From IMG/VR virus record IMGVR_UViG_3300038393_000245, positions 76,289 to 140,288 of that record: a DNA stretch of 64,000 bases; one strand, 5' to 3'. Position 1 is the stretch's first letter. The number at the start of each line of letters is the position of its first letter. Of the stretch, positions 3,001 through 60,383 are shown one piece after another. Source of the stretch: a virus. Its lineage: Duplodnaviria; Heunggongvirae; Uroviricota; Caudoviricetes. The translations under genes and the position numbers were made by a program. Under the pieces are notes generated by a model. The model saw only the letters and a program-made list of their open reading frames with translations. It was not told where the DNA came from and made no database searches.

Positions 3001-4700
3001 AATGATGTTGAAGAATCTTTAAGATTTATTACGGTGCCGGTGTTACAATTCCAATTTCCAGCTACTTCAGTAACCAGAACATAATTTCCATAATCTATCG
3101 TTGCTGATAGATTAGATGCGGTTGACGAATCTATTCCCTTATCGACATCAGTATAGTAATTCGATACCGTCTCAACTCGATATCCATCAATATATCCTCG
3201 TCCTGGATCGATCGCTACAGTAAAATACTGTCCCTCATTAGAAGTGTTTGCCGGAGAACGAGTAGTGACTAAGAACTCGTCAAGAACAAAGTCACCAGAC
3301 TGTTCATTTGTTCTAATCGCCATCTCGTCCATAATTGAATTGAACTGAGTTCGGCGATTTTCTCTAAATGCTCTTCCTTCGGAGAAATCGACAATCGATA
3401 AGAATTCCTCATTGGCAGTTGCTACGTCTGTAGGAACAACGACCAGAGTTGGAGTTAGTTTTAGTCGATCGGCTCCAGGAGCAAATTCATTAGGGCCACC
3501 CGTGGTGTTATCTAGTAGATCTTGGTCACTATTAGAGTCAATAACATCTTCTAGAGTCTCGAACCCAACTGAAACATCATCAGGGCTTGGATCATGCTTA
3601 GATACAATTACTGTCTGAGGATTAACATGAATAAAGTGGCCCTTCTGATAAATGATACCCTCGGTCACTCCAAAAGCATAACCGAACCCAACACTGTTTG
3701 TTTTATTGGAAACGGTTATCTGAGCAATGTAATTCTGAGCAACAAGATCTAAATCAGTGTAGTTTCTAGAACCAATTGTTGACGCGCTGGCAGACGCTTT
3801 GATTGACACATATGGAGATACGTAATAACCCTCTCCAGGAGTGATAATCTTAATGTTGGTTATTTTTCCGATATCGGCACTAGTTATTACTTGAGCGGTG
3901 GCTCCAGATCCAACTGATGAATTAATAGTTGCTGTTGCTCCCGAAGTTCCTCCAATAATATCCTGACCGTCAGTGAATTGCCATGTGGTTGAAGATATCG
4001 CAGTATTCGATAAATCCGAAGTTCTAGGTTTTAATTGAAGAATCTTCTTTCCGTTAACACTCTGAATGGCTGTTACGAGAGCAACATGCTCTCCTCCAGT
4101 TTGCGTAACAATTTCTCCAACCGAAAAGTTTGCATTGCTAGTCTGAGTGATATCAAGAGCAGAACAGAATACAACTGAATCGTTATTAGCGAATCCAGAG
4201 CTTCCATTATTAATCTTAACCGAATGAACGGAATCTAGATAGTCATATATCTTAAGAACAGATCCAGAAGAGAATGATGTAGTGTTTCCATCATTTCCAG
4301 AATTGATATACCTCAGATATAGAGTCTTTAAATCCGGATCAGTCGTCTCATACCCATCTTGTGAATTAATGATATGTGCGGTAAGATTGCTGGATGGATC
4401 GACGATAAAATGAGATACGTAAGAGCTTGGGATGGCCGGTTGACCATCCAATTGTGAGTCGATTATCTTAATATACGAATAATTTGGATGATAGGTGAAG
4501 TTCACACCATCAATTATCGTTCCACGCTTGTAAATATTATTTCCGAGCCTCTCGACCTGTTCCTGAAGAATGGTCTGAAGCTCGTTCAGCTCTCTTACCT
4601 GAACTGCTACTCCTGGCTTGAAGAGTACTCGGTGATAATTCTTTTCCGGATCATGGTCGTCAAAATATGGAGAGACACTGAGGTCTTTATTTATTGGCAT
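1..4700 (-). CDS. very large tail-fibre-like structural protein (>1,560 aa), 3' end beyond window start
   Basis: ATG at 4700-4698 with AAGGA SD and an ATAAATA late motif (4733-4742) upstream. No minus-strand ORF is listed here, consistent with a frame open to position 1. Hand translation is Ser/Thr/Asn/Gly-rich like phage fibres. Plus-strand ORFs here are short shadow ORFs. Confidence 0.7.
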   Translation of the reverse strand, partial: MPINKDLSVSPYFDDHDPEKNYHRVLFKPGVAVQVRELNELQTILQEQVERLGNNIYKRGTIIDGVNFTYHPNYSYIKIIDSQLDGQPAIPSSYVSHFIVDPSSNLTAHIINSQDGYETTDPDLKTLYLRYINSGNDGNTTSFSSGSVLKIYDYLDSVHSVKINNGSSGFANNDSVVFCSALDITQTSNANFSVGEIVTQTGGEHVALVTAIQSVNGKKILQLKPRTSDLSNTAISSTTWQFTDGQDIIGGTSGATATINSSVGSGATAQVITSADIGKITNIKIITPGEGYYVSPYVSIKASASASTIGSRNYTDLDLVAQNYIAQITVSNKTNSVGFGYAFGVTEGIIYQKGHFIHVNPQTVIVSKHDPSPDDVSVGFETLEDVIDSNSDQDLLDNTTGGPNEFAPGADRLKLTPTLVVVPTDVATANEEFLSIVDFSEGRAFRENRRTQFNSIMDEMAIRTNEQSGDFVLDEFLVTTRSPANTSNEGQYFTVAIDPGRGYIDGYRVETVSNYYTDVDKGIDSSTASNLSATIDYGNYVLVTEVAGNWNCNTGTVINLKDSSTSFASNTTLVSAGVLTSSGSTIGTARVRNFVYDDGVPGTPSATYRLYLFDIKMSAGFVFNQIRGVQMGTTTAVADSVLTFDATLNTSVCKLFDTTSGSTLVLRTGSDSTKNINNLSYVYRTTSDTVAMANTGTASILLSDPNSYFAYESTSLTDNEKKTVIMVPSSDMIFAPNTSSDGTGSVTSGSNTVTMSSSSTINKYNVGDYAALWQNSTSYIVRRVTNKTSTSLQFDSNATFTNGTASVSRALPINIPTGLSRIPGASVSVTNGGKALAVNLGSTLKSASATNFSITYDVEVRDTTPQSKTASRDNFVKIDVTSSNINGPWCLGIPDIFRLKGVYLSTSSTVNANSTDVTSEFYIDHNQTSDYYGLGYLYKKKSSNISIGSNHWMLVQFDAYTSTPGVYTINSYVSSNTSQRFSDDSLDLSSLGTKTNSFEVPELYTAQGSYYDLLNCIDFRPVATATAAYSNTVAGATVNPSETLGFSGTDKKFPLPESGVKFDREYFTGRKDSVVVTKDNLFKVIRGTPASNPTTPDVPNGTLYLNTIDIPAYPCVAEHFSSTMKDILDKKMSNEKFLLRRIRDKTIQLEVDETLRKLEQPKGYTMSDIGQLERRIKDLEYNVALSLVESDLRDKVIPSNASPGLNRFKFGFYVDDYTTSKHSDVDHPEYAADVIDSKVVPMSVSTGTPHGPEVTATGSVVGDFSLVSQPLASVPTPPVVVTPTPTPSPVVVAKMVSIFRSETTTNRASVSDTGWIMFSSVPSSWWIDYDFNTAVDDIEIVKRDSLGNITTVLSRLGIVRTGKLNFQHDPSTGREYKITTYKKSRYWKYTLWYPIDSTVYVDPTPPSPNVGTTFYDGALISISPGHFVPTTMSENFGEIAYSALGVTQAIRMASLRPSTQHVVKLSDSSGIIMVTPTLKAGNGSIAPSNYVTTDSGGQISFNLVVDTTTLNKINSLSGSSTYTLSPQIYVTVESSDGMSSGSFVINVQTSATTTSVTPVGGASVKE

Positions 4701-4747: not shown

Positions 4748-6799
4748 TTAAAAAGATAGAACAATCTTGAAGGTTTCAGTCTTCTCTGAATCTCTCGTGA
4801 TAGCGTCTCCATATTCAATATAGGACACCGTTCCAGAGCCATACACGAGATCTGGTAAATATTTATTCGTCAGAGAAGCGACGGCTCCACTAGACATACC
4901 TCTTATTTCATTTGTTAAGTTAAGATTATCAACGCCGGTATTAAACACTCCATTTTGATTTGTAGTGTAGATCCTAAGTGTAGAGGTATCAGGATCAAGA
5001 GCAGTCGAATGGAATCTTGCAGTAACACCGTCATTATCTATTTGATATAGAACTTCATCAGGAATAAATTGTCCCTGAGTCATAGATCCAATATACGTGT
5101 ATGTTTGCATAAAGGTATTAAATCCTTTTGAAACACCATTTATCTTAACCGTATCTATTTCTGCTCTAACTCCGGTTTCTTTTCCTATAAGAATATCTCC
5201 CGAAGAGAATATTCCATATGTATCCGTTAGAGTGACCGCCTCTGATGAGAATCCATCAACCAATCCCTTAGATACTACATCGACAATATGAATGTTAGCG
5301 TACCCAGCTCCAGTATCCCACAATGCAATTGAATCCATTACGATTCCAGTATTAGAAACGGATTCTACGTTAGATACCTGATAATTGGTTCCATCCTCAA
5401 TTAGAATAGTATCGCCAACAACAGCGATGCTATGTGAGTTAACTCCATTAACAGTCAATAATTCTGTCAATTCATTGTTGGAATTTAATGATGTCTCAAC
5501 GGTTCCAGAAAGCTGGCGAGTCTTGACGTTATAAACCCATTCATTAGTATAGAAGTCTTTATTATTGTTAACAAGCGTCAACTCTATGCTTCTAAATTCT
5601 GGGTTCTTAATGATTCCTATCTGAGAATAATCATTATCGGTAATGATGGTGTTTGATTCCGTCCCGGATAGCTTAACATTCATTCCTACAAACTTTGAAC
5701 CTAACTCAGATTCTGCATTGGACCCATGTCCCTTCACCGGAGACATGATAGGGATAGCACTAGCTTGAGATGATACTCCAACCGATGAGGACGACATCAC
5801 CTGGACCGAACCATGATAATAATCTTGACCACGATCAATCATCTCGATTCTAGATACCGTATTTCCATTAGGATCTATTATCGCTCGAGCAGAAGCAGGA
5901 AGTGTTTCTCTTCCATCTCCGGTAATTTGAACAGATGGAGTTATTTCAAACACGGATCCATTTTGCGGTTGATTGGTTATATCAAATTGATCCGATAATA
6001 TCACAAAATTATGAGTTGCATTAGAGGTGTATGATTCGATCATTCGATATTGGCCAGAGCCAGCTCCAGCCGATACATACAGCCAACACGCGTCATAATA
6101 TCCATTAACTTCTTTAATATTGCTGACAGATATTCCGTATTTTTTGGGATCGCCATTAAGTCTAATGTCAGACACTCCAAACGATCCAGAAATGTAGTTA
6201 CTGTACCCCTTCCCTGGAGACGTTACTGATATAACATCTATAGATCCTGGAACTGCAGCATTCTGTACATTCGGATCATTGAACACTGGAATATATTCTG
6301 GAGTTGCAAATTTGGTAAAATCTGCGTCCGAGATAGAATACATAAACTTCCATCGATATCCATCGGTTGGATAGTAGAAGTCCAATTGAGATGATCCAAC
6401 GTTCGATATCGATGGAGATACTATTGAAGCGTTTCCGTTCCCATTCTCCAAACACTTGAATACGTTCCAGTTGGTTCCTTCTTGAACTACGACGTAAAAA
6501 TTCGTGTCATATAGTAAAGGATCTCTATGATCGTAAGTATCGAATACAATCCCGGATTGCCAGTCAATCCTTCTAATCATTAGATTAAGATCACTCTGTT
6601 GGATCTTCTTTCCGAATATCATTCCTTGGTACGAAGTGACAGACGTATCTTGCTCATTATCAAATGGCCTGATGTCATTATTAGCATCGATATGATTACT
6701 AACAAAGAAATAATATTGCTCTTCTCCAACAGAACTAATAAACCCTTCTGCAGAATCATGCTTATAGTTAATTGTAAGAAGTGATTTTGAATTATCCAT
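4748..6799 (-). CDS. baseplate wedge protein, gp8-like N-terminal region with long C-terminal extension
   Basis: Segment GYRWKFMYSISDADFTKFATPEYIPVF resembles T4 gp8 GYVWEYLFEIPPD..YIVVP. Follows the gp7-like gene as in T4 order 6-7-8. 683 aa against 334 aa in T4. Confidence 0.55.
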   Translation of the reverse strand: MDNSKSLLTINYKHDSAEGFISSVGEEQYYFFVSNHIDANNDIRPFDNEQDTSVTSYQGMIFGKKIQQSDLNLMIRRIDWQSGIVFDTYDHRDPLLYDTNFYVVVQEGTNWNVFKCLENGNGNASIVSPSISNVGSSQLDFYYPTDGYRWKFMYSISDADFTKFATPEYIPVFNDPNVQNAAVPGSIDVISVTSPGKGYSNYISGSFGVSDIRLNGDPKKYGISVSNIKEVNGYYDACWLYVSAGAGSGQYRMIESYTSNATHNFVILSDQFDITNQPQNGSVFEITPSVQITGDGRETLPASARAIIDPNGNTVSRIEMIDRGQDYYHGSVQVMSSSSVGVSSQASAIPIMSPVKGHGSNAESELGSKFVGMNVKLSGTESNTIITDNDYSQIGIIKNPEFRSIELTLVNNNKDFYTNEWVYNVKTRQLSGTVETSLNSNNELTELLTVNGVNSHSIAVVGDTILIEDGTNYQVSNVESVSNTGIVMDSIALWDTGAGYANIHIVDVVSKGLVDGFSSEAVTLTDTYGIFSSGDILIGKETGVRAEIDTVKINGVSKGFNTFMQTYTYIGSMTQGQFIPDEVLYQIDNDGVTARFHSTALDPDTSTLRIYTTNQNGVFNTGVDNLNLTNEIRGMSSGAVASLTNKYLPDLVYGSGTVSYIEYGDAITRDSEKTETFKIVLSF

Positions 6800-21878: not shown

Positions 21879-21987
21879 CAGACGATTTATTGTAATCCGG
21901 CTTACAGGAGACCGCGAGAGACGCGGTCGTCACTGCTAGTATGATTCCAATGATAGCTCGCCACATAGAGAATTCCCCCTCGAGTAG

Positions 21988-22070
21988 AAGAGAAGGCCGG
22001 AATCGAACCGACGACAGGTCCTAAGAGGGGTTACAATCCCAGGACTGCTCTACCACTGAGCTACTTCTCT
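21988..22070 (-). tRNA. atypical tRNA-like gene (83 nt), candidate anticodon UGU (Thr) on an abnormally extended anticodon arm
   Basis: Reverse complement reads AGAGAAG-UA-GCUC-AGUGGUA-GAGC-A...GUCGG-UUCGAUU-CCGGC-CUUCUCU-U. Acceptor, U8A9, D-arm and T-arm are canonical. The anticodon arm is 28 nt (GUCCU-GGG-AUUGUAA-CCC-CUCUU-AGGAC) instead of 17. Consensus promoter at 22078-22108 places the transcription start at its 5' end. Confidence 0.5.
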
Positions 22071-30139: not shown

Positions 30140-31318
30140 TTGAAAACAGGTCAGCCCTTATCCCTCAAGAAAGCAAATCCGGTGATCACTCCGAATAAAC
30201 ATCTTATCGGTGTTCGAGAAGCACTTCAGAGGCAAGGATTTGATCTTTGGTTCGTTGGTGGTTGCGTTAGAGATTCTATTCGAGGCGAAGAACCAAAGGA
30301 TATCGACCTGTGCACTAGTGCGACTCCGGAAGAAGCGATTCAAGTCTATGAGAAGAATAACATTCGGTATTTTAAGACCGGAATCGATCATGGAACTCTG
30401 ACTGTTAGAGTTAATGGTCAGTCGTATGAGATCACCTCTCTCCGAACCGAATCAAATCATGACGGAAGAAGGTCGACGGTTTCGTATACTCGAGACATCA
30501 TAGAGGATCTCAGTAGAAGGGATCTAACAATCAATTCTATCGCGCAGAGATTTGATGGATACATCATCGACCCATTTGGAGGCGTCGATGATATTAAGAA
30601 TCATCGAGTCCGAATGGTTGGAAGTGCTTCTGATCGATTCAAAGAAGACTACTTACGAATCTTAAGATTCTTTAGATTCCATGCTAGGTTTGCTGGAGAG
30701 AGCCCTCTCGATCAGAGTGCTCTAGAGGCCATCGAAGAGACTAAGGAAGGTCTCAATCAAATCTCTGGAGAGAGAAAGTGGCAGGAGATTCAAAAGATAT
30801 TAGTCGGACCATCGTCCTCAGCTACTCTTATTCGAATGAAAGATGTCGGAGTCATGAAGTCTATTGGTGTGAAAGACTTCAGTGTCGATAGAATGAAGAA
30901 GTGTGATGAAAAGAAGATCAGTAGATCATCTACCGTTCTTGGAATAATTTCTTATAAGCAGATCATCGAATCCGTAATGAGCGACTGGAGAATGAGCAAC
31001 AGTGAGCGTTCTGAAGCGAGATTCGCGAATCTCTATCATGACGTAACATCAGTGGGCAAATTCAAGGATCTCTTGGTAGACGGAGCTAATATCGACTGGG
31101 TCGAAGAGCTGCTGAAACTTAATGACCTCTCCTCTCTTCGTGAGTGGGAAGTTCCGGTATTTCCAGTCAACGGTCTGGACATCATCAATAAGAAGGGAAT
31201 CAAGACAGGACCAGCGATCGGACTAATCTTAAGGAACCTTCGAGAGAGTTGGAAGAAGTCTGATTACAAACTTACTAAAAAGCAATTGCTTAACCATCAA
31301 TCAATGCCTCGGAGCTAG
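30140..31318 (+). CDS. tRNA nucleotidyltransferase (CCA-adding enzyme / poly(A) polymerase head-domain family)
   Basis: LWFVGGCVRDSIRGEEPKDIDLCT matches the class II GGxVRD...DxD head motif. The RDLTINS and RFFRF motifs are also present. Start uncertain (TTG 30140 or GTG 30182). Confidence 0.8.
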   Translation: MKTGQPLSLKKANPVITPNKHLIGVREALQRQGFDLWFVGGCVRDSIRGEEPKDIDLCTSATPEEAIQVYEKNNIRYFKTGIDHGTLTVRVNGQSYEITSLRTESNHDGRRSTVSYTRDIIEDLSRRDLTINSIAQRFDGYIIDPFGGVDDIKNHRVRMVGSASDRFKEDYLRILRFFRFHARFAGESPLDQSALEAIEETKEGLNQISGERKWQEIQKILVGPSSSATLIRMKDVGVMKSIGVKDFSVDRMKKCDEKKISRSSTVLGIISYKQIIESVMSDWRMSNSERSEARFANLYHDVTSVGKFKDLLVDGANIDWVEELLKLNDLSSLREWEVPVFPVNGLDIINKKGIKTGPAIGLILRNLRESWKKSDYKLTKKQLLNHQSMPRS

Positions 31319-34508: not shown

Positions 34509-35033
34509 TTAAATTGAAGAACAACGTCTTGGTTGTCTCCTCACGACAGTGGCGTACGTAGTGGTCCATGCAATGTAACCATAATCGATAGAATTTCGAA
34601 CGGATGTTCCTCCCGAAGCTGGAGTTGTTGTCACAACAACTTCAAGAGCAGAACCATCCGGAACGGTTAATAGGCTACTATTCCAAGTGAAAGTAAAATT
34701 TTGACTTGAACTTGGAGCAGCCGTTACTGATTGAGCGGAACTAGTAGCAAGAGCAGCTGCTCCTCCAGTTTCCCATATCGCTATAGTGAAGGTAGGAGTT
34801 CCAGTGTTAGTACTATTCTTTCGAGCCTGAACTGTTATTGTTTGAAGACCGGCTCCAGATGTCAGAACTGGAGTAGGAGTAGGAAATCCTACTCGGATAG
34901 TAGACGCTACGTTGCTAGTAGACGCGGTGGTCCAGTTGGTGTCTTGAGCTCCAAGATTGGTAGTTGTAGCAGTTCCAGCAGTAACATTCGAGGATGATAC
35001 GATCGTATCTGGTGTTAATATCTGATTAGCCAT
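34509..35033 (-). CDS. Thr/Ser-rich structural protein (174 aa)
   Basis: Sits between the two fibre genes. Confidence 0.45.
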   Translation of the reverse strand: MANQILTPDTIVSSSNVTAGTATTTNLGAQDTNWTTASTSNVASTIRVGFPTPTPVLTSGAGLQTITVQARKNSTNTGTPTFTIAIWETGGAAALATSSAQSVTAAPSSSQNFTFTWNSSLLTVPDGSALEVVVTTTPASGGTSVRNSIDYGYIAWTTTYATVVRRQPRRCSSI

Positions 35034-37675
35034 TATGACCTCACAACAAAGGCTATATCCTGGAGAGTTGAATCAGGAGAAGCTGGAGCCTCTATCCACG
35101 CTAGATCACCACTACTAATAGATCCTGCCGTTATACTGACGGTTGCTGTAGTTGATGCCGCTCCGAAAGTAAAGGTGCCAATGGTTGTAGGACTTGCTAT
35201 CGTTCCTTTTTTAAGAGTGAACACCGTGCTGCCAGTAGCAGCGACCAAACTTTTCGCAGCACTATTAGTCTGACTGATCGTAACGGGATACTGGAAGATA
35301 CCTAGGACGTATCTCTCATTAGCGAGTGTCGTTCCGGTAACAGTGTAGTCCTTACCGTCAACTTTATTAGCTGCAGTAATGTTACCAGATGCAGCAATAG
35401 CAGCGGCACTAACTGTTCCAGTGAAAGTTGGAGAAGAAGTTGGAGCCTTAGCATTAAGAGCGGTCTGAAGATCGGTCTGACTGCTTAAAGTTCCTGTAAT
35501 ACTTCCCCACGACGCAGGACCAGCGGTTCCTGTTATAGAACCTCCTGCTGGCTTAAGTATTCGAATATAATCACCAGCACTATCGGTTGTTATAGTGACA
35601 GTAGTTCCACTTAGAGTGTAGTTTGTAGTTGGAGCTTGTAGAACTCCGTTAACAAACACCTCAATATCATCAACAGTAAGGCCACTCTCAGGGATTGTGA
35701 CTGTTTGTGATGCTCCTGTACCAGTAGCGGTAACCGGAGACCATGCCATTCCACTATTTCCACCCGCTGAACCGGTGAAACCAGTCGGACCAGTAGATCC
35801 CTGAGATCCAGTGAATCCAGTCGGCCCAGAAGACCCAGATGAACCAGTGAAACCAGTAGGGCCCGTTGTTCCCTGCGAACCAGTGAATCCCGTAGGACCT
35901 GCAACAGTAGACGCCGATCCAGTGAACCCAGTAGGACCTGTTGTTCCCTGTGACCCAGTAAAACCGGTTGGCCCGGTCGAACCCTGAGAACCCGTAAATC
36001 CAATCGATCCTTGCGACCCAGTGAATCCGGTCGGACCAGTAGGCCCTTGTGATCCTTGCGACCCCGTGAACCCGGTCGGTCCAGCGACAGTAGAAGCAGA
36101 TCCAGTAAAACCAGTCGGACCAGTAGGCCCTTGTGATCCTTGCGATCCAGTAAAACCGGTAGGACCCGCAACAGTAGAAGCAGATCCAGTGAACCCAGTC
36201 GGACCTGTTGCACCACTAGATCCCGTAAATCCAATCGATCCTTGCGATCCGGTGAATCCAATTGGACCTTGTGATCCTTGCGACCCAGTGAAACCTGTAG
36301 AACCAGAAGTTCCAGCCGATCCCGTGAACCCAGTCGGACCTGATGAACCCTGTGAACCGGTAAAACCAATCGGACCTGATGAACCAGTTGATCCAGTAAA
36401 ACCAGTCGAACCAGTGAACCCTGTTGGTCCGGTAGAACCAGAAGATCCAGCAGAACCAGTGAACCCTACTGGCCCAGTAGACCCTTGCGATCCAGTAAAT
36501 CCTGTTGGTCCAGAAGTTCCAGCCGATCCCGTGAACCCAGTCGGACCTGATGAACCCTGTGAACCGGTAAAACCAACATTACCTTGAGCTCCGCTTGAAC
36601 CAGTAAACCCAGTAGATCCTGTTGTTCCCTGTGACCCTGTGAATCCGGTTGGTCCAGCGACGGTAGACGCCGATCCAGTAAACCCAGTAGGTCCTGTTGT
36701 TCCTTGCGAGCCAGTGAATCCAGTCGGCCCAGCAACAGTAGAAGCAGATCCAGTGAACCCAGTAGGACCAACAGGACCAGTAGAACCCTGAGAACCAGTA
36801 TATCCGATATCACCTTGAGCACCGGTCGACCCGGTGAATCCAGTTGGACCCATCGCGCCCATGGATCCAGTGTATCCTATGTCACCCTGCGATCCGGTGT
36901 ACCCCTGAGATCCGGTCGACCCAGTATATCCCTGGCTTCCAGTATATCCAATACTTCCCTGTGACCCGGTGTATCCTATATCACCTTGCGATCCAGTGTA
37001 CCCGATTGGTCCCTGAATATTTCCTACATTCTCCCAAGCACTCCCGTTCCATACATACAGATCACCATTAATGAGATATGCGTCTCCACTAGTTCCACTT
37101 GCGGGAAGTTCTGCGGTGCTAGAAAATGACCCCTTAATGTTGATTCCGTTTCCAATCGATCCAGTGTATCCAATTGAACCCGTGTAGCCAAGATCTCCCT
37201 TAGAACCAACAAACCCAGTTAGTCCTATAGTTCCCTGCGAACCAGTATATCCGATTACGCCCTGATCTCCAGTAGAACCAACATATCCAATTGGACCGAT
37301 ATCCCCTTGAGAACCGGTATAGCCGATGGGACCAATGTCTCCTTGTGATCCGGTGAATCCGACGGACCCCGAATATCCCGTTGTTCCTATTGATCCAGAA
37401 TATCCGATATCACCCTGCGATCCGGTATATCCAATCGATCCAGTATATCCTAGATCTCCCTGTGAACCAACGTATCCTGTCGATCCATCGTACCCAATCG
37501 AACCTTGTGAACCGGTGTATCCAATCGAACCAGTGAATCCAACTGACCCAGAATATCCTCTAGTGATCTGAAGAACCTCGACAGAGATAGCGTCAGGGTC
37601 TGTTATCACCGATAGAGGAGGCGATCCAATCTCTGTTACTTGTTCTATCTCGATATTATAGGCCATCTGATACAC
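35033..37675 (-). CDS. collagen-like triple-helix repeat tail-fibre protein (880 aa)
   Basis: Hundreds of G-X-Y triplets ([30 protein letters not shown]) between non-collagen N- and C-terminal domains. Confidence 0.75.
35700..37560. repeat. imperfect tandem nucleotide repeats encoding G-X-Y collagen triplets
   Basis: Recurring ggatccagtgaacccagt(c/a)ggacc-type units within the collagen-like gene. Confidence 0.7.
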
Positions 37676-54349: not shown

Positions 54350-55723
54350 TCACATTCTAGCTCGATTTCTAATTTCTTCAAAAGTAGTCTCATTAACGAC
54401 GATTCCATCTAAGAATCGAACCTTCAATAGATTCTCACGACTACCAAGCTCTTCTTGTCTAATAGTCTTATATTCGTTAGATTCCTTAATGAGTGACAGA
54501 CGTCCCTTTTTGGACTTCTTTCCGGAGTCAGTGATTGGATCCTTAAACACATCGATCCATTTTCCATTCACTTTAGCCGCGCTGCACTTCATCGCGAATT
54601 TAAGTGTATCTCGATTAACCTGTTGAAGGAGAGCTCCTCCCTGTCCAAATGCTATATTGTCAGCACTATATCCAGCTAGTGTTAGAGTAAACAGGATCGA
54701 TCTAATGCTCGAATGATCGATTCCATCTCCCTGAATGATTCGAACGTTGTTAAGAACACGATATCCCTTATCGTTAACCGTACTTCCAAAATATTCATCA
54801 AGAATTTGAGCACACTTCTTGACAACCGTAGCAGGATCTCCCGAATCTGGTCGAACTACTAGAGTAGCTCCACTTTGAAGAACATCATCCTTAAGAACAG
54901 TTCCCCACATCTTGCAGGCTTCGAAGATATCATAGGAATCGGATACACAAGCTATCAGACCTCCGGGTTTACCATGGTTCTTAATCATGTTTCGATATGA
55001 ATCAACTTCATGATCGCGGCCCCAACTGGTTACGGTAGAGTGCTCCATAGCTGGAATGCTAAACCCGGGAACCGAATCAGAAGCATAATGGTTCATGATA
55101 TAGGATAGTGCTTCGACAGTATCCGTTCCCTTAAAGTTGATAAGGTGAGCGGCTCCACCAATGGCTGCCGATTCTCTCGAAGAGACTCCACGAGCTCCAA
55201 AATCATGAAGCTTAAAATCGATAAGTGATGGATCTCCAGTTTTATTCAGACAGTCTAGAATGATCTCTTTCGAATGATAGCTATTACTGGCTACCGTCGT
55301 AGGATACCAGATCGCCCTTAACAGAGCCGTCTCAAGGAACGAGGTTAGCCACCAGCACGCTGGATCAGTATTGAAGATTGCGGCCAATATATTCTTAGTA
55401 GGAAGAACAGTACCTTCATCAATTCCTAAGATACAGACTGGAAGTTTCCCTCTATGATTCTCTACTATGTAGTCCCATCCTTCTCGATAAAATGGAAGTC
55501 CATGAGAGGTGATAATATCTTGAGCCTCATTAACATCTTCGTTAGTGACTACACAGTCTCTAAGATAGTGTACAAATGGTTGAAGCCCATTGTAGACAAC
55601 TTTATCATAGAGACCACCTCTTGATTCGATATAGGACCAAACAAACTCAGTGTTCGGAGGGTACTGATTCCATTGCGAATACTTGTATGAATCGCTATTC
55701 AGAATAATATTACTTGTAGTCAT
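54350..55723 (-). CDS. nadV: nicotinamide phosphoribosyltransferase (NAMPT/NadV)
   Basis: NSDSYKYSQW..YPPNT, LHDFGARGVSS, INFKGTDTV, RPDSGDP and QGDGI blocks align along the whole length with NAMPT. Confidence 0.95.
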   Translation of the reverse strand: MTTSNIILNSDSYKYSQWNQYPPNTEFVWSYIESRGGLYDKVVYNGLQPFVHYLRDCVVTNEDVNEAQDIITSHGLPFYREGWDYIVENHRGKLPVCILGIDEGTVLPTKNILAAIFNTDPACWWLTSFLETALLRAIWYPTTVASNSYHSKEIILDCLNKTGDPSLIDFKLHDFGARGVSSRESAAIGGAAHLINFKGTDTVEALSYIMNHYASDSVPGFSIPAMEHSTVTSWGRDHEVDSYRNMIKNHGKPGGLIACVSDSYDIFEACKMWGTVLKDDVLQSGATLVVRPDSGDPATVVKKCAQILDEYFGSTVNDKGYRVLNNVRIIQGDGIDHSSIRSILFTLTLAGYSADNIAFGQGGALLQQVNRDTLKFAMKCSAAKVNGKWIDVFKDPITDSGKKSKKGRLSLIKESNEYKTIRQEELGSRENLLKVRFLDGIVVNETTFEEIRNRARM

Positions 55724-55763
55724 TGTAAAACTCCTTTACAACATTAAAATAAGCGTTTATCGC

Positions 55764-56810
55764 TTATCTGATCAATGGAACGAAATTAGTGATGATATCA
55801 TAGTGATCGTCAAAGAGTTCCTCTCTCTTAATACTTACGAATGGAACCCACTTGGCTTTTTCAGCATCATCTGCTCCCTTAATCTTCGGGAGCTTCCATT
55901 CTCCTCCTTGAAGAGAAATATGAGCAGCGAATGTAATTGATCTTCCGAGTTGCGATCTATTTTTAGCAGAGAAGTGTCTCTCACTCTTAATCGATCCTCT
56001 CAGAACTTTATCCGGGACGTCGATTCCTGTCTCCTCCTTCAACTCTCGAATAATTCCATCTAGAGGAGTATCATCATTTACGGCATCGAAATATCCTCCT
56101 GGGAGAGCCCATAGACCCTTTCCAGGATGAGACCTACGCTTAATCAATAGAATGTGACCACTCTGAGTGACTACAGCGTCGCACGTTACATTGACCACCG
56201 GATAGGGAAGAGACTTGTACTTTTCTCTATATGAATCAACGATTCTCTTCTCTTCTAGAATGTTTTGAAATTCTTCGGTTGATCTAAATCGTATCAAGAA
56301 AGAGATGACCGACTGAGGCATCACTCCAACAAGGAAATTAGAGTTGAACTTATCGGAAAAGTACATCTCTCGAATTTGAGTCGCATCTAAGATGTTGACA
56401 AAGTCGGCAGGAACTTCTTCCCATTGAGGAAACATTTCGAGATATCTTTTAGTCTCCAAGTCCTTCTTGTGCCCAATGATTCCAATCCTATCACCGTTAT
56501 TGGTATACCATGATACTGTCTCCTGAATTCGAGCGACCCATGCGTCATCATCATACAGAGTATCGTCGTTGTATTCGAATACATACTCGGCTGAAGTGAA
56601 GTCAGAGAGACGCTGTACTTCTTCGGAGAGCATATCAATACGCTCTTGGTATGTCCACGGGTTCTTGAATGTTCTGGGAGCTTTAGCAGATCCGATAATG
56701 ATGATGACTTGATCGGCTAGTTTTCCAGCTCGCTCTAATAGCTCGAAATGAGCGTTGTGTGGAGCCTGGAATCGTCCAATGAGGACAAGTGTATTATAAG
56801 GTTTTTTCAT
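55764..56810 (-). CDS. bifunctional NMN adenylyltransferase / Nudix ADP-ribose pyrophosphatase (NadM-Nudix, NatV-like)
   Basis: N-terminal GRFQAPHNAH ((H/T)xGH nucleotidyltransferase) and C-terminal Nudix box GGYFD..DDTPLDGIIRELKEETGI. ATAAATA late motif at 56861-56867. Confidence 0.85.
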   Translation of the reverse strand: MKKPYNTLVLIGRFQAPHNAHFELLERAGKLADQVIIIIGSAKAPRTFKNPWTYQERIDMLSEEVQRLSDFTSAEYVFEYNDDTLYDDDAWVARIQETVSWYTNNGDRIGIIGHKKDLETKRYLEMFPQWEEVPADFVNILDATQIREMYFSDKFNSNFLVGVMPQSVISFLIRFRSTEEFQNILEEKRIVDSYREKYKSLPYPVVNVTCDAVVTQSGHILLIKRRSHPGKGLWALPGGYFDAVNDDTPLDGIIRELKEETGIDVPDKVLRGSIKSERHFSAKNRSQLGRSITFAAHISLQGGEWKLPKIKGADDAEKAKWVPFVSIKREELFDDHYDIITNFVPLIR

Positions 56811-57114: not shown

Positions 57115-57708
57115 TTATTCTTCTCCAAATACATCCAAAACGATCTTCTTAAACTTATTAAGATCGTACTTCATAAAGGGTTGATATTTAATAATGAGTT
57201 TGGACACTTCTTTCCAGATTGGATCGTCTCTTAAAACTTTGTTCCATTTTGGAAAACACTTTGTAAGATGGACGAGTATAATGAGCGTTTCAAGACAGAT
57301 TCGTCCAGAAAGGAATTTTCTAAGAAGCTCTGGATGTCGTCCATCTTCCACTGTAAAGTTGTCGTCAAAGTTCGGTTCGAGTAGTCCCATTTCAGATCTA
57401 AAATTGTAGGTAAGGGATTGGTTCCTTTTGAGCCATTCTTTGTATCGTTGTTCCGATTGTTCATTAATTAAATCTCCAACCCAAATGTTTCTATCATGAA
57501 TGATATTAGAAAGAATGTATGATGATGGATCTCGGTGTTTAGCTAACTTATCGAAGAAATATTTGTCTCGTCTTTTTTCGAAAGACTTGACGCTAACGTT
57601 TAGCTTCCCTCCGTATCGGAAGTAATCATACGAATCTTTTGTGAAGTGATTCTTAAGAGCTAGATACTTCTGATAGGTTTCGAACGGTGTCATTAATCTC
57701 AACGCCAT
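57115..57708 (-). CDS. helicase loader gp59-like
   Basis: KSFEKRRDKYFFDKLAKHRD matches T4 gp59 AAYQKRRDKYFFQKLSEKY. 197 aa against 217 aa. Confidence 0.8.
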   Translation of the reverse strand: MALRLMTPFETYQKYLALKNHFTKDSYDYFRYGGKLNVSVKSFEKRRDKYFFDKLAKHRDPSSYILSNIIHDRNIWVGDLINEQSEQRYKEWLKRNQSLTYNFRSEMGLLEPNFDDNFTVEDGRHPELLRKFLSGRICLETLIILVHLTKCFPKWNKVLRDDPIWKEVSKLIIKYQPFMKYDLNKFKKIVLDVFGEE

Positions 57709-58321: not shown

Positions 58322-58594
58322 TTATTCCAATTCAACGATTGTATGGATCATCTTTTCTGGATCCATTATACACCACATGATGCATTTTGTCAACAAAAGA
58401 ATGAATAAAAAGATTAGAGGAGTACTTGGTAGGAATAGATACGCTAGAACAATGGAGATGACGTCTATCGATAGTATAGTCCAGTAGAATGCTACTCGGT
58501 CAAACGGACATGGTATATGACACATGCCATATCCGGCAAAGTATAGCGCCGCCAGGATTCCTAGCAGGATAGCGCTAACTATAAGAATGAACAT
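58322..58594 (-). CDS. small membrane protein (90 aa, 3 TM)
   Basis: Hydrophobic. Confidence 0.5.
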   Translation of the reverse strand: MFILIVSAILLGILAALYFAGYGMCHIPCPFDRVAFYWTILSIDVISIVLAYLFLPSTPLIFLFILLLTKCIMWCIMDPEKMIHTIVELE

Positions 58595-58800
58595 TAATAG
58601 TCCTTATAATATTCTTTCGCCATCTTTGGATCAGAATCCAAACTCATTAATATAGATTCACACTGACGAGCATACTCAATTAAAATGAGGAGATCGTCTG
58701 AACTAACCGATACATTCACTGACTTACTGGGAGACTTAAGAACCACGAGCTCTAGGTCGTCAATAAGCTTGGTCATTACAGAACGCTTGTATGTAACCAT
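58594..58800 (-). CDS. hypothetical protein (68 aa)
   Basis: ORF track. Confidence 0.45.
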   Translation of the reverse strand: MVTYKRSVMTKLIDDLELVVLKSPSKSVNVSVSSDDLLILIEYARQCESILMSLDSDPKMAKEYYKDY

Positions 58801-58868
58801 AAAAGGTACTCCTTCTGTACCTCATATTTATGGTTCAGAGCGTTCTAGCGACAACTATTTTTGAAGAG

Positions 58869-58952
58869 TGGAGCCCCTGACAGGATTCGAACCTGCATAC
58901 GTCCATTACGCTGTTAAAGACCGGGTAGAAGCCGGTGGCGATACAGGGGCTC
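58869..58952 (-). tRNA. atypical tRNA-like gene (~82 nt) with encoded CCA, candidate anticodon UCU (Arg)
   Basis: Reverse complement has canonical T-arm GCAGG-UUCGAAU-CCUGU, acceptor GCCCCUG/CAGGGGC, discriminator U and CCA. A 5-bp/7-nt hairpin ACCGG-CUUCUAC-CCGGU sits where the D-arm should be. No canonical D-arm can be drawn. Confidence 0.45.
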
Positions 58953-58957
58953 AATGA

Positions 58958-59266
58958 TTATTCTTTAGTAAGCATATTTAGTATTAGACGATACCGTTCC
59001 TTAAGATTCAGATTATAAAATCCAACCGTTTTGGACATATGAAAATTATGAAACCCAATGTATGCGTCTAACAGACGATTATAGACTTCGCTTCCTTCAG
59101 AGTCTAATGGTTCGTCGTTATAATCTATTTCTCGAACTTCCAACATCTCTCCAAGATAAGACATTCCATCTCGACACGACTCGGCTTGTTCTTTAGTATC
59201 GAATGGACTTCCAACAACCACGTCTCCAAAGTCTACAAGAGCCCAAACCTTTTTCATCTTATTCAA
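58958..59266 (-). CDS. hypothetical protein (102 aa)
   Basis: ORF track. Confidence 0.5.
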   Translation of the reverse strand: MNKMKKVWALVDFGDVVVGSPFDTKEQAESCRDGMSYLGEMLEVREIDYNDEPLDSEGSEVYNRLLDAYIGFHNFHMSKTVGFYNLNLKERYRLILNMLTKE

Positions 59267-59698: not shown

Positions 59699-60068
59699 TT
59701 ATATGCCTATTTGAATGAGCGCCGAGATTGGGTGATAAGGCTCTCGGCCGGCCTCAGGAGTTCTTAGGCAGCTAGTGCCATCTCCGGAAGATTATCATTT
59801 GCAGATATTCTATTTAGCGCTTACGGCGCCAGTCGATCCTCTGAGTGTATCATTCACTGGTGTCGATCCTATTTCGCCCCCATCAGAAATACTGGATCCA
59901 AAGATGTCAACCTTTGTACGATTGATTAGCCAACACTCGTTAACAAATGTTTCCGCTACCGGTCGCTACTCCGGTCATGTGTGACAACCCAGTATTTCTG
60001 GTGGAGGCGGCGGAGTACTGCCCTCCGCGTCCATCCAGCTATCTTTTCACCTTAAGCAAGGATGAGAT

Positions 60069-60098
60069 ACTTATACTATACTATCCATCAAATGTCAA
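60069..60098 (-). promoter_or_regulatory. early promoter TTGACA-N17-TATAAG
   Basis: Reverse complement ccTTGACAtttgatggatagtatagTATAAG. Followed by a ~370-nt ORF-less region. Confidence 0.55.
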
Positions 60099-60383
60099 GG
60101 AATTTTTATCGGATTCTTCTTTAATTACTTTCTTAATCGCTTGAGTGATCAAGTAATTCGGAGTTACTCTGTCCATGCTGGATTTAATGAGCAGAAAATC
60201 ACAAAGATCTGGATCTAACTCAAAATCCAAGTCTACGTATCCCTCTGCTCCAAAATTTTCATCGGAGAATTCTTTAGCTCGATCATACAGTTCTAATAAA
60301 TCTTCCGGAACGGATTCTTTAATCTTAGACAAGAATTCTTGAATAGGGTTCACTTCTTCATCTCCTCTACATTCCAGCACCAA
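60081..60383 (-). CDS. hypothetical acidic protein (100 aa)
   Basis: ORF track. Confidence 0.5.
   Translation of the reverse strand: MVLECRGDEEVNPIQEFLSKIKESVPEDLLELYDRAKEFSDENFGAEGYVDLDFELDPDLCDFLLIKSSMDRVTPNYLITQAIKKVIKEESDKNSLTFDG

Follow-up and report, generated by a model that had tools for sequence, protein, structure and literature searches.

This study concerns a small RNA gene in a 64,000-nucleotide (nt) stretch of a tailed-phage genome (Caudoviricetes; IMG/VR record IMGVR_UViG_3300038393_000245, positions 76,289 to 140,288), hereafter called the window. The gene lies on the minus strand, runs from 58950 to 58869 and encodes an 82-nt RNA, CCA included, that is probably an arginine transfer RNA (tRNA) of unusual internal order. 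The RNA reads GCCCCUG-UA-UCGC-C-ACCGG-CUUCUAC-CCGGU-CUUUAACA-GCGU-AAUGGA-CGUAU-GCAGG-UUCGAAU-CCUGU-CAGGGGC-U-CCA. Most hallmarks of a tRNA are present: a 7-bp acceptor stem, a discriminator base and CCA, a T arm of 5 bp with a 7-nt loop (UUCRANY), and an anticodon arm of 5 bp with a 7-nt loop that carries U33 and a purine at position 37. The hallmark that is lacking is the D-arm hairpin, which normally spans the interval from residue 9 to residue 26. In this RNA a spacer of only 5 nt follows A9 before the anticodon arm (5-bp stem, 7-nt loop, anticodon UCU) begins, so a D hairpin is impossible at its usual place. The original prediction, made from the letters alone, had described a tRNA frame (acceptor, T arm and encoded CCA) with a UCU hairpin where the D-arm should be, and all the pieces that it listed are present in the sequence. 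It had also stated that no normal cloverleaf can be drawn, and this is borne out by the 5-nt gap, by the deletion of the D-arm in the Rfam alignment and by the silence of ARAGORN in its default mode. The parts of the gene are as follows.

58869..58950, minus strand: whole gene, a putative non-canonical tRNA-Arg(UCU), from its sequence, the Rfam tRNA model (32.1 bits), family model R1 (85.8 bits) and the independent model R2 (74.1 bits).
58944..58950, minus strand: 5' acceptor strand GCCCCUG, partner of 58873-58879; 7/7 pairs covary in 51 relatives, with 98% of cells paired.
58942..58943, minus strand: U8-A9 connector; U8 in 51/51 members, UA in 48/51, UAA or UAG in 3.
58938..58941, minus strand: UCGC, 5' strand of a long-range helix and presumed place of D-stem residues 22-25; its CGC pairs with GCG at 58909-58911.
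58920..58936, minus strand: anticodon arm ACCGG-CUUCUAC-CCGGU, with the anticodon UCU at 58927-58929 and U33 and A37 kept; 5/5 pairs covary.
58912..58919, minus strand: linker CUUUAACA from the anticodon stem to the 3' strand of the long-range helix; 3-11 nt in the family, variable in sequence and mostly purine-ended.
58908..58911, minus strand: GCGU, 3' strand of the long-range helix, presumably D-stem residues 10-13; covaries with 58938-58940.
58902..58907, minus strand: AAUGGA, a D-loop-like segment, presumably A14, A15, U, G18, G19 and A20; GGA in 51/51 members.
58897..58901, minus strand: connector CGUAU ending in A-U, the A kept in 50/51 and the U presumably residue 48, Levitt partner of A15.
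58880..58896, minus strand: T arm GCAGG-UUCGAAU-CCUGU with a standard T-loop; stem 98.8% paired, with covariation.
58873..58879, minus strand: 3' acceptor strand CAGGGGC, with covariation in the family alignment.
58869..58872, minus strand: discriminator U and genomically encoded CCA, from the sequence.

When folded as a single sequence, the RNA gave a minimum free energy (MFE) structure consisting of the acceptor stem, the UCU hairpin, a small GCGU/ACGU hairpin and the T arm (-31.8 kcal/mol; z = -2.9 against shuffles). The two bases GA at 58951-58952 lie outside the gene proper, and their sole effect is a longer acceptor helix in this fold. Standard tools hardly recognize the gene. In default mode, the only tRNA that ARAGORN called anywhere in the window was the one at 21987-22070, and the element at 58869-58950 was passed over; at an 80% threshold the program drew a poor tRNA-Arg(tct) over it. 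The intron, metazoan and mammalian mitochondrial, and tmRNA (transfer-messenger RNA) modes did not call it either, and the mitochondrial modes yielded an unrelated 50-nt artefact. The Rfam tRNA model RF00005 matched at 32.1 bits (gathering threshold, 29), in an alignment that deletes the D-arm and inserts 20 nt in the variable region before the T arm. Among the Rfam 15 models, searched up to E = 10, RF00005 was the only match, and neither a Y-RNA nor a tmRNA model was hit.

Relatives of the element were collected by blastn, by pattern scans of IMG/VR and of one genome per prokaryotic species, and then by covariance-model searches, which together gave 51 distinct members from cultured phages, contigs of uncultivated viruses and, in a few cases, what are probably prophages. 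A megablast search of the neighbourhood against phages found no match. In a blastn search against GenBank phages, the 76-nt element alone matched, with 88-91% identity (E = 2e-19), in the Streptomyces phages Francob, Enygma, Genie2, BoomerJR, Stanimal, Yaboi and Sollertia; a 76% match was found in Stenotrophomonas phage SOVA965. Further cultured carriers are the mycobacteriophages Wildcat, Azrael100, EniyanLRS and Cosmo, Limnohabitans phage DC31 and Agrobacterium phage Atu_ph04. Bacterial assemblies contain few true members, chiefly in Rhizobiales (Brucella cytisi, Ensifer sesbaniae, Mesorhizobium, Falsochrobactrum), where they presumably belong to prophages, and a blastn search of 5,426 complete E. 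coli genomes gave no match. The family thus spans phages of Actinobacteria and Proteobacteria, plus a contig of a Clostridia metagenome-assembled genome (MAG). Absence from relatives had been proposed as a test that would speak against the element; the opposite was found, as it is widely conserved. The CCA is genomically encoded in 31/51 members, and the discriminator is U in 22, A in 20 and G in 9. ARAGORN missed all family members in the 31 loci that were scanned. A covariance model built from 20 other members, with the window and its closest relatives left out (R2), found the element in the 64 kb at 74.1 bits (E = 3e-23), the next match scoring 17 bits. With the family model, members score 48-93 bits, as against at most 39 bits for the canonical tRNAs of the same loci.

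The alignments support four helices. When 31 members were aligned with plain MAFFT, the stems of the acceptor, anticodon and T arms were 92-99% paired, with many compensatory changes. The fourth helix is long-range: the CGN that follows U8-A9-Y pairs with an N'CG just 3' of the anticodon arm, and it was paired in 100% of the 31 members, the N:N' pair being GC in 21, CG in 6, AU in 2 and UA in 2. In the window, CGC at 58938-58940 pairs with GCG at 58909-58911. RNAalifold, run unguided on this alignment, returned the same four-helix structure, long-range helix included. In the alignment of all 51 members, 97.4% of cells were paired overall and 98.7% in the long-range helix; this alignment was fitted to the model and is biased toward the structure, whereas the MAFFT/RNAalifold result is free of such bias. 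The covariation score was 0.789 for the 51 members, compared with 0.19 for shuffles (0/500 reached 0.789) and at most 0.15 for slid partners. The three long-range pairs were CG in 49 and UA in 1; GC in 44, AU in 4 and CG in 2; and GC in 33, CG in 8, AU in 4 and UA in 2, with double changes at all three. In one member (L248:4231), the helix is AUG/CAU and has moved by one position, so that the flanking Y and U, mismatched elsewhere, are paired. This shift indicates that the long-range helix is best viewed as a four-layer stem resembling a D stem.

The sequence that follows this helix identifies the displaced part. All members continue with U-A-R-(N)-G-G-A, then 1-7 variable bases, and then an A and one base that abut the T stem; the window copy reads U-AAUGGA-CGU-A-U. 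A canonical phage tRNA-Arg(ACG) from the same data has the D-arm CCGU-AAUGGAUA-ACGG, and this match indicates that N'CGU-AAUGGA corresponds to the 5' D-stem strand (10-13) followed by the D-loop (A14, A15, U, G18, G19, A20). The upstream YCGN would be the 3' D-stem strand, residues 22-25, which is ACGG in the canonical tRNA-Arg(ACG). The original prediction had spoken of scrambled internal arms; instead, a single block, consisting of the 5' D-stem strand and the D-loop, is displaced, and the arms are not randomly shuffled. The chain would then run in the order 1-7, 8, 9, (22-25), 26, (27-43), 44 onward, (10-13), (14-21), 48, (49-65), (66-72), 73, CCA. The anticodon side has ten stacked layers, as usual (4 + 1 unpaired + 5). 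The nucleotides that serve tertiary contacts are kept, namely U8 (51/51), the A14 equivalent, G18-G19 (51/51) and the standard T-loop. Positions 15 and 48 occur as A..U in 44 members, G..C in 3 and G..G in 4, and never as A..C or G..U, which is the pattern of the 15:48 Levitt pair. A G15:G48 pair occurs in E. coli tRNA-Cys. In solved tRNA structures, the residues at the new joins 9/22, 45/10 and 21/48 are neighbours.

All of the family's anticodons are those of arginine: UCU in 35 members (and in two more with 8-nt loops), CCU in 8, ACG in 3 and UCG in 3 (n = 51). Every member has C35, together with U36 or G36, and the anticodon loop has 7 nt in 49/51. In E. coli arginyl-tRNA synthetase (ArgRS) recognition, A20 is the major identity element and C35 is essential (PMC4615739). 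Within the fetched loci, the D-loop motif GGA was found in 40/41 canonical tRNA-Arg genes and in 80/503 other tRNAs (16%). Since the motif is present in 51/51 members and is far commoner in canonical tRNA-Arg than in other tRNAs, it forms an arginine signature independent of the anticodon, and its A would occupy the A20 position in three dimensions.

The genomic setting is likewise that of a tRNA gene. Members lie on the same strand as their neighbours within phage tRNA arrays. In 10 arrays with 11-28 ARAGORN tRNAs, none (0/10) holds a canonical tRNA with the member's anticodon, and most have canonical Arg(ACG) only. In Wildcat, the element (NC_008206 61151-61226) lies between tRNA-Gly and tRNA-Gln in a 188-nt gap that carries no annotation, and the sole annotated tRNA-Arg is ACG; in a 20-kb region of Yaboi, the other tRNA-Arg genes are TCG and ACG. 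In the open reading frames (ORFs) of the window, 38% of arginine codons are AGA and 15% are AGG. The acceptor (GCCCCUG/CAGGGGC) and T arm (GCAGG-UUCGAAU-CCUGU) of the element are identical to those of canonical tRNA-Arg(UCU) on three viral contigs (L005, L006 and L010). Distantly related to phages of Rhizobium, Caulobacter and Sinorhizobium, the phage itself is T4-like and has a tmRNA of the alpha type, which suggests that its host is a GC-rich alphaproteobacterium, presumably poor in AGA-reading tRNA.

In our view, the element is probably a functional elongator tRNA-Arg(UCU) in which residues 10-21 have moved to the variable-loop position while the contacts of the L-shape are kept, and which is supplied for phage genes rich in AGR codons (R, purine). 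The four helices with their covariation, the conserved positions, the arginine-only anticodons, the placement in tRNA arrays and the codon usage were all computed here. The gene would be transcribed together with its neighbours, and RNase P and 3' nucleases would trim the transcript, in which CCA is already encoded. The host ArgRS may then charge the RNA through A20 and C35/U36, and the charged tRNA would read AGA, and probably AGG, on the ribosome. In the predicted L-shaped fold, the two D-stem strands still pair, and the shape would be secured by U8, A14, A15:U48 and G18-G19 facing the T-loop. On a stronger claim we are evenly divided: that the RNA is a natural topological isomer of tRNA, i.e., a functional tRNA-Arg with the standard L-shape and an altered strand order (joins 9-22, 45-10 and 21-48) that gene finders have overlooked. 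It is our speculation that the rewired core is kept to escape an agent that recognizes normal tRNA-Arg, for example a tRNA-targeting nuclease of the host or a host-shutoff activity of the phage.

Other explanations were weighed against this one. The element might be a floppy, mitochondrial-style D-armless tRNA-Arg, wherein the 3-bp helix merely lengthens the anticodon arm and UAAUGGA..AU is a connector for ArgRS contact. Mitochondrial tRNAs lacking the D-arm do work, their connector regions providing flexibility (PMC7609411); the Rfam alignment is that of a tRNA with the D-arm deleted, and the docked core is predicted from sequence and not taken from a three-dimensional structure. We nevertheless consider this unlikely. 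Mitochondrial D-armless tRNAs are without G18-G19 and the T-loop consensus (PMC7609411), whereas the family keeps GGA in 51/51 members and the standard UUCGANU T-loop. Moreover, without the standard tertiary pairs it would be hard to see why U8 and the A preceding residue 48 are kept and why positions 15 and 48 vary together, and the motif is a real D-arm half of canonical tRNA-Arg(ACG). Local pairing is the alternative that the original prediction had drawn, with the anticodon hairpin at the D position and a self-contained GCGU-AAUGG-ACGU hairpin at the variable position. This fold is the MFE structure of the single sequence, and the small hairpin is possible in this copy, with AAUGG indeed a D-arm-like segment 3' of the anticodon hairpin; however, it is not conserved. 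It is 68% paired in 31 relatives, its C:G pair is unpaired in 22/31, and the closest relatives, Yaboi and Francob, lack one of its bases, while GCG covaries perfectly with the upstream CGC instead. We therefore regard it as very improbable.

A non-decoding role as a tRNA mimic would make the RNA a decoy or sponge for a tRNA-Arg nuclease or another defence protein, a Ro/Y-RNA-type partner, or a substrate of a nucleotidyltransferase. Phage tRNAs that counter tRNA-targeting defences are known. In the Streptomyces carrier phages, a gene for a Ro-like RNA-binding protein lies 1.3-4 kb from the element; a nucleotidyltransferase of the PolyA_pol type is encoded in the window; and the non-standard core could bar the element from parts of normal tRNA metabolism. 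Against a mimic stand the four different anticodons, arginine every time; the conservation of U33, purine 37 and the 7-nt anticodon loop (49/51); the non-redundancy of members with the canonical tRNAs of their arrays; and the heavy use of AGA by the phage. Furthermore, there is no Ro-binding helix past the acceptor stem, no Y-RNA match in Rfam at E = 10, and no Ro gene seen near most carriers. A mimic therefore appears doubtful. That the element is a decaying pseudogene or a chance tRNA-like sequence is hardly credible, although ARAGORN makes no call and the Rfam score barely exceeds the gathering threshold: the 51 distinct copies show compensatory changes in all helices and occur in phages of Actinobacteria and Proteobacteria and on a Clostridia MAG contig, and the independent model R2 recovers the element at E = 3e-23. 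Conservation and covariation refute this explanation. Several further candidates were rejected. Excision of the anticodon hairpin as an intron, or in processing, would leave no anticodon arm; circular permutation at the gene level is inapplicable, as the ends are already standard; a duplicated attachment site from the 3' end of a tmRNA or tRNA does not agree with the presence of both acceptor strands and the conservation in other contexts; and a Y RNA or tmRNA-like element has no Rfam support even at E = 10.

Some points weigh against a functional tRNA-Arg with a rewired core. The whole case for it is built on sequence, and the equivalence of residues to 10-25 and 48, as well as the steric feasibility of the joins 9-22, 45-10 and 21-48, is inferred. 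The long-range helix has only 3 Watson-Crick pairs, and its fourth layer is mostly U-U or C-U; the four G15 members that do not follow the 15/48 pattern with C have G before the T stem. The apparent invariance of the motif is partly built in, since the collection patterns fixed CGTAATGGA (or GTAATGGA..AT) and GGTTCGA. U8, A9 and the 5' CG were left unfixed by the patterns, and the main IMG/VR scan also left free the A-U that precedes the T stem; all of these are nonetheless invariant. Members found by the covariance model only show the variants UAACUGGA, UAAAUGGA, AACGGA and UUCAAAU while retaining GGA. The loci compared are also partial: a canonical tRNA-Arg(UCU) could sit elsewhere in those genomes, or outside the 64-kb window in the present phage.

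In GenBank, members are unannotated save one. Gene 148 of Yaboi (NC_048730 86686-86764; L014 1498-1576) is labelled tRNA-Val(aac), very probably wrongly, as it belongs with the rewired tRNA-Arg(UCU) genes; in Yaboi's sister phages and in the Wildcat-group mycobacteriophages, the element has no annotation. A 181-kb viral contig (L043; IMGVR_UViG_3300022562_000747) carries three rewired tRNA-Arg genes, at 4212-4293, 5299-5380 and 5533-5617. Two of these have the anticodons UCG and UCU, and the third has an anticodon loop of 8 nt, UGUUCUAA; two canonical tRNA-Arg genes (GCG and CCU) adjoin them. The 8-nt loop could serve quadruplet or frameshift decoding. One gene of this contig (4212-4293; UCG) and one on L001 (7843-7924; ACG) form a sub-variant, in which UAACUGGA-NGGAAGAU replaces UAAUGGA-N(n)-AU. 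Its long-range helix has two clear pairs only (CC/GG), and the L001 copy also permits a small CAG-GUAA-CUG hairpin; the core of this sub-variant may be arranged somewhat differently.

The surroundings of the element were also inspected. An informal reading of the gene lists around members showed no conserved protein partner, and the neighbouring genes vary from phage to phage. In the window, Pfam gave no match for either flanking ORF (58958-59266 and 58594-58800). A terminator-like hairpin at 58803..58823 (minus strand), about 45 nt downstream of the tRNA, matches the consensus weakly and shares sequence with the start region of the following ORF; as such sites are no more numerous than in shuffled sequence, it is a possibility only. 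About 780 nt upstream of the element, on the same strand, lies a permuted two-piece tmRNA (59727-60102, minus strand; Rfam tmRNA_permuted 89.1 bits, alpha_tmRNA 80.4 bits), which ARAGORN did not call at this position. Wildcat and Yaboi, which also carry the rewired tRNA-Arg, have tmRNA genes in their tRNA arrays. A Ro-like RNA-binding protein is encoded in the same tRNA-rich region of Francob (L015 2924-3076) and Yaboi (L315 2557-4182).

Two unusual tRNA-like genes together with a CCA-adding enzyme had been taken as a sign of non-standard tRNA biology. Both genes are indeed odd, and the present element is real and non-standard. The other gene (21987-22070, minus strand) has a different oddity, scoring 17 bits with the family model. 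Its acceptor, D and T arms are normal; its anticodon, GUA, is that of tyrosine, and the anticodon stem GUCCU/AGGAC encloses 18 nt. In its MFE fold the anticodon arm is over-long (a 9-bp stem with a 10-nt loop), and its variable loop is short, unlike that of bacterial class II tRNA-Tyr. No blastn relatives of it were found in GenBank phages. The product of the enzyme gene (30140-31318, plus strand) is 392 aa long and combines a PolyA_pol head domain with the associated RNA-binding domain, which marks it as a class II nucleotidyltransferase of the CCA-adding/poly(A) polymerase type. No specific tie between this enzyme and the element emerged, and the element already encodes its CCA.

Further genes of the window include a nicotinamide adenine dinucleotide (NAD) salvage pair (54350-56810, minus strand), consisting of a nicotinamide phosphoribosyltransferase (NAMPT_N and NAPRTase) and a cytidylyltransferase-like/NUDIX fusion (NadR/NMNAT-like). 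It is followed by a gp59-like helicase loader (57115-57708). A protein of 877 aa (35033-37666, minus strand), in which collagen triple-helix repeats form seven stretches (E = 1e-75), is probably a tail fibre or another virion fibre.

If the predicted fold is true, the L-shape of tRNA would be independent of the strand order of the cloverleaf, and a core block could be moved with all tertiary contacts kept. This would bear on RNA folding and tRNA evolution, and would imply that ArgRS, RNase P, EF-Tu, modification enzymes and the ribosome read shape and not connectivity. An AGA/AGG-decoding tRNA would also have gone unannotated in Wildcat and its relatives, the Streptomyces Karimacvirus phages, Atu_ph04, SOVA965 and DC31, in addition to being mislabelled tRNA-Val in Yaboi, and such gaps skew analyses of phage tRNA content against codon usage. 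A compact natural rewired tRNA could be a scaffold for orthogonal translation systems. If the rewiring evades tRNA-directed defence or shutoff nucleases, it would represent a new phage means of protecting translation.

Compared with known systems, the element most resembles canonical bacterial and phage tRNA-Arg(UCU), phage T4 tRNA-Arg among them. It shares with them the 5-bp anticodon stem, the loop CUUCUAN, U8, G18-G19-A20, C35 and presumed AGA decoding. It differs in lacking a D hairpin before the anticodon arm and in having the 5' D-stem strand and D-loop 3' of that arm, where they replace the variable loop; it also escapes ARAGORN. An altered order of segments is likewise found in the red alga Cyanidioschyzon merolae, where Soma et al. 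are said to have found in 2007 that a whole tRNA gene is circularly permuted and that a circular intermediate restores a normal mature tRNA. In contrast to the algal genes, the 5' and 3' ends of the element are standard and the rearrangement is internal; thus, the mature RNA itself must be rewired.

Mitochondrial D-armless tRNAs, such as mammalian mt-tRNA-Ser(AGY) and nematode mt-tRNA-Ser(UCU) (PMC7609411), share with the element the absence of a D hairpin, an extended anticodon-side arm and a role in translation, which is presumed for the element. Those tRNAs are flexible and short, have their D-replacement loop on the 5' side, and are without the G18G19/T-loop motif. In the phage family, the tertiary nucleotides are kept, the length is about 73-79 nt without CCA, the long-range helix is defined and the long connector lies on the 3' side. 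Neither the full-text literature, nor a 2020 review of non-canonical tRNAs (PMC7609411), nor Rfam 15 contained a description of such a tRNA, subscription-only literature being outside the search. An uncharacterised candidate RNA, DNAVirus_2961, which sometimes overlaps ARAGORN tRNA-Arg calls (PMC10690425), may belong to the present family.

Allo-tRNAs, found by genome and metagenome mining and in some cases in phages, have 8/4 or 9/3 acceptor/T configurations with a conserved 12-bp branch (PMC5389517). They alter the split of pairs between acceptor and T stems, whereas the phage family has the normal 7/5 split and an altered order of strands in the D region. The tRNA-like domains of tmRNA and of the bacterial Y RNA YrlA likewise have an acceptor stem and a T arm, and their D-arm is either non-standard or absent. 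Unlike tmRNA, the element has an anticodon arm, C3:G70 and not G3:U70, and no mRNA-like part; unlike YrlA, its acceptor stem ends in NCCA and is not prolonged into an extended Ro-binding helix.

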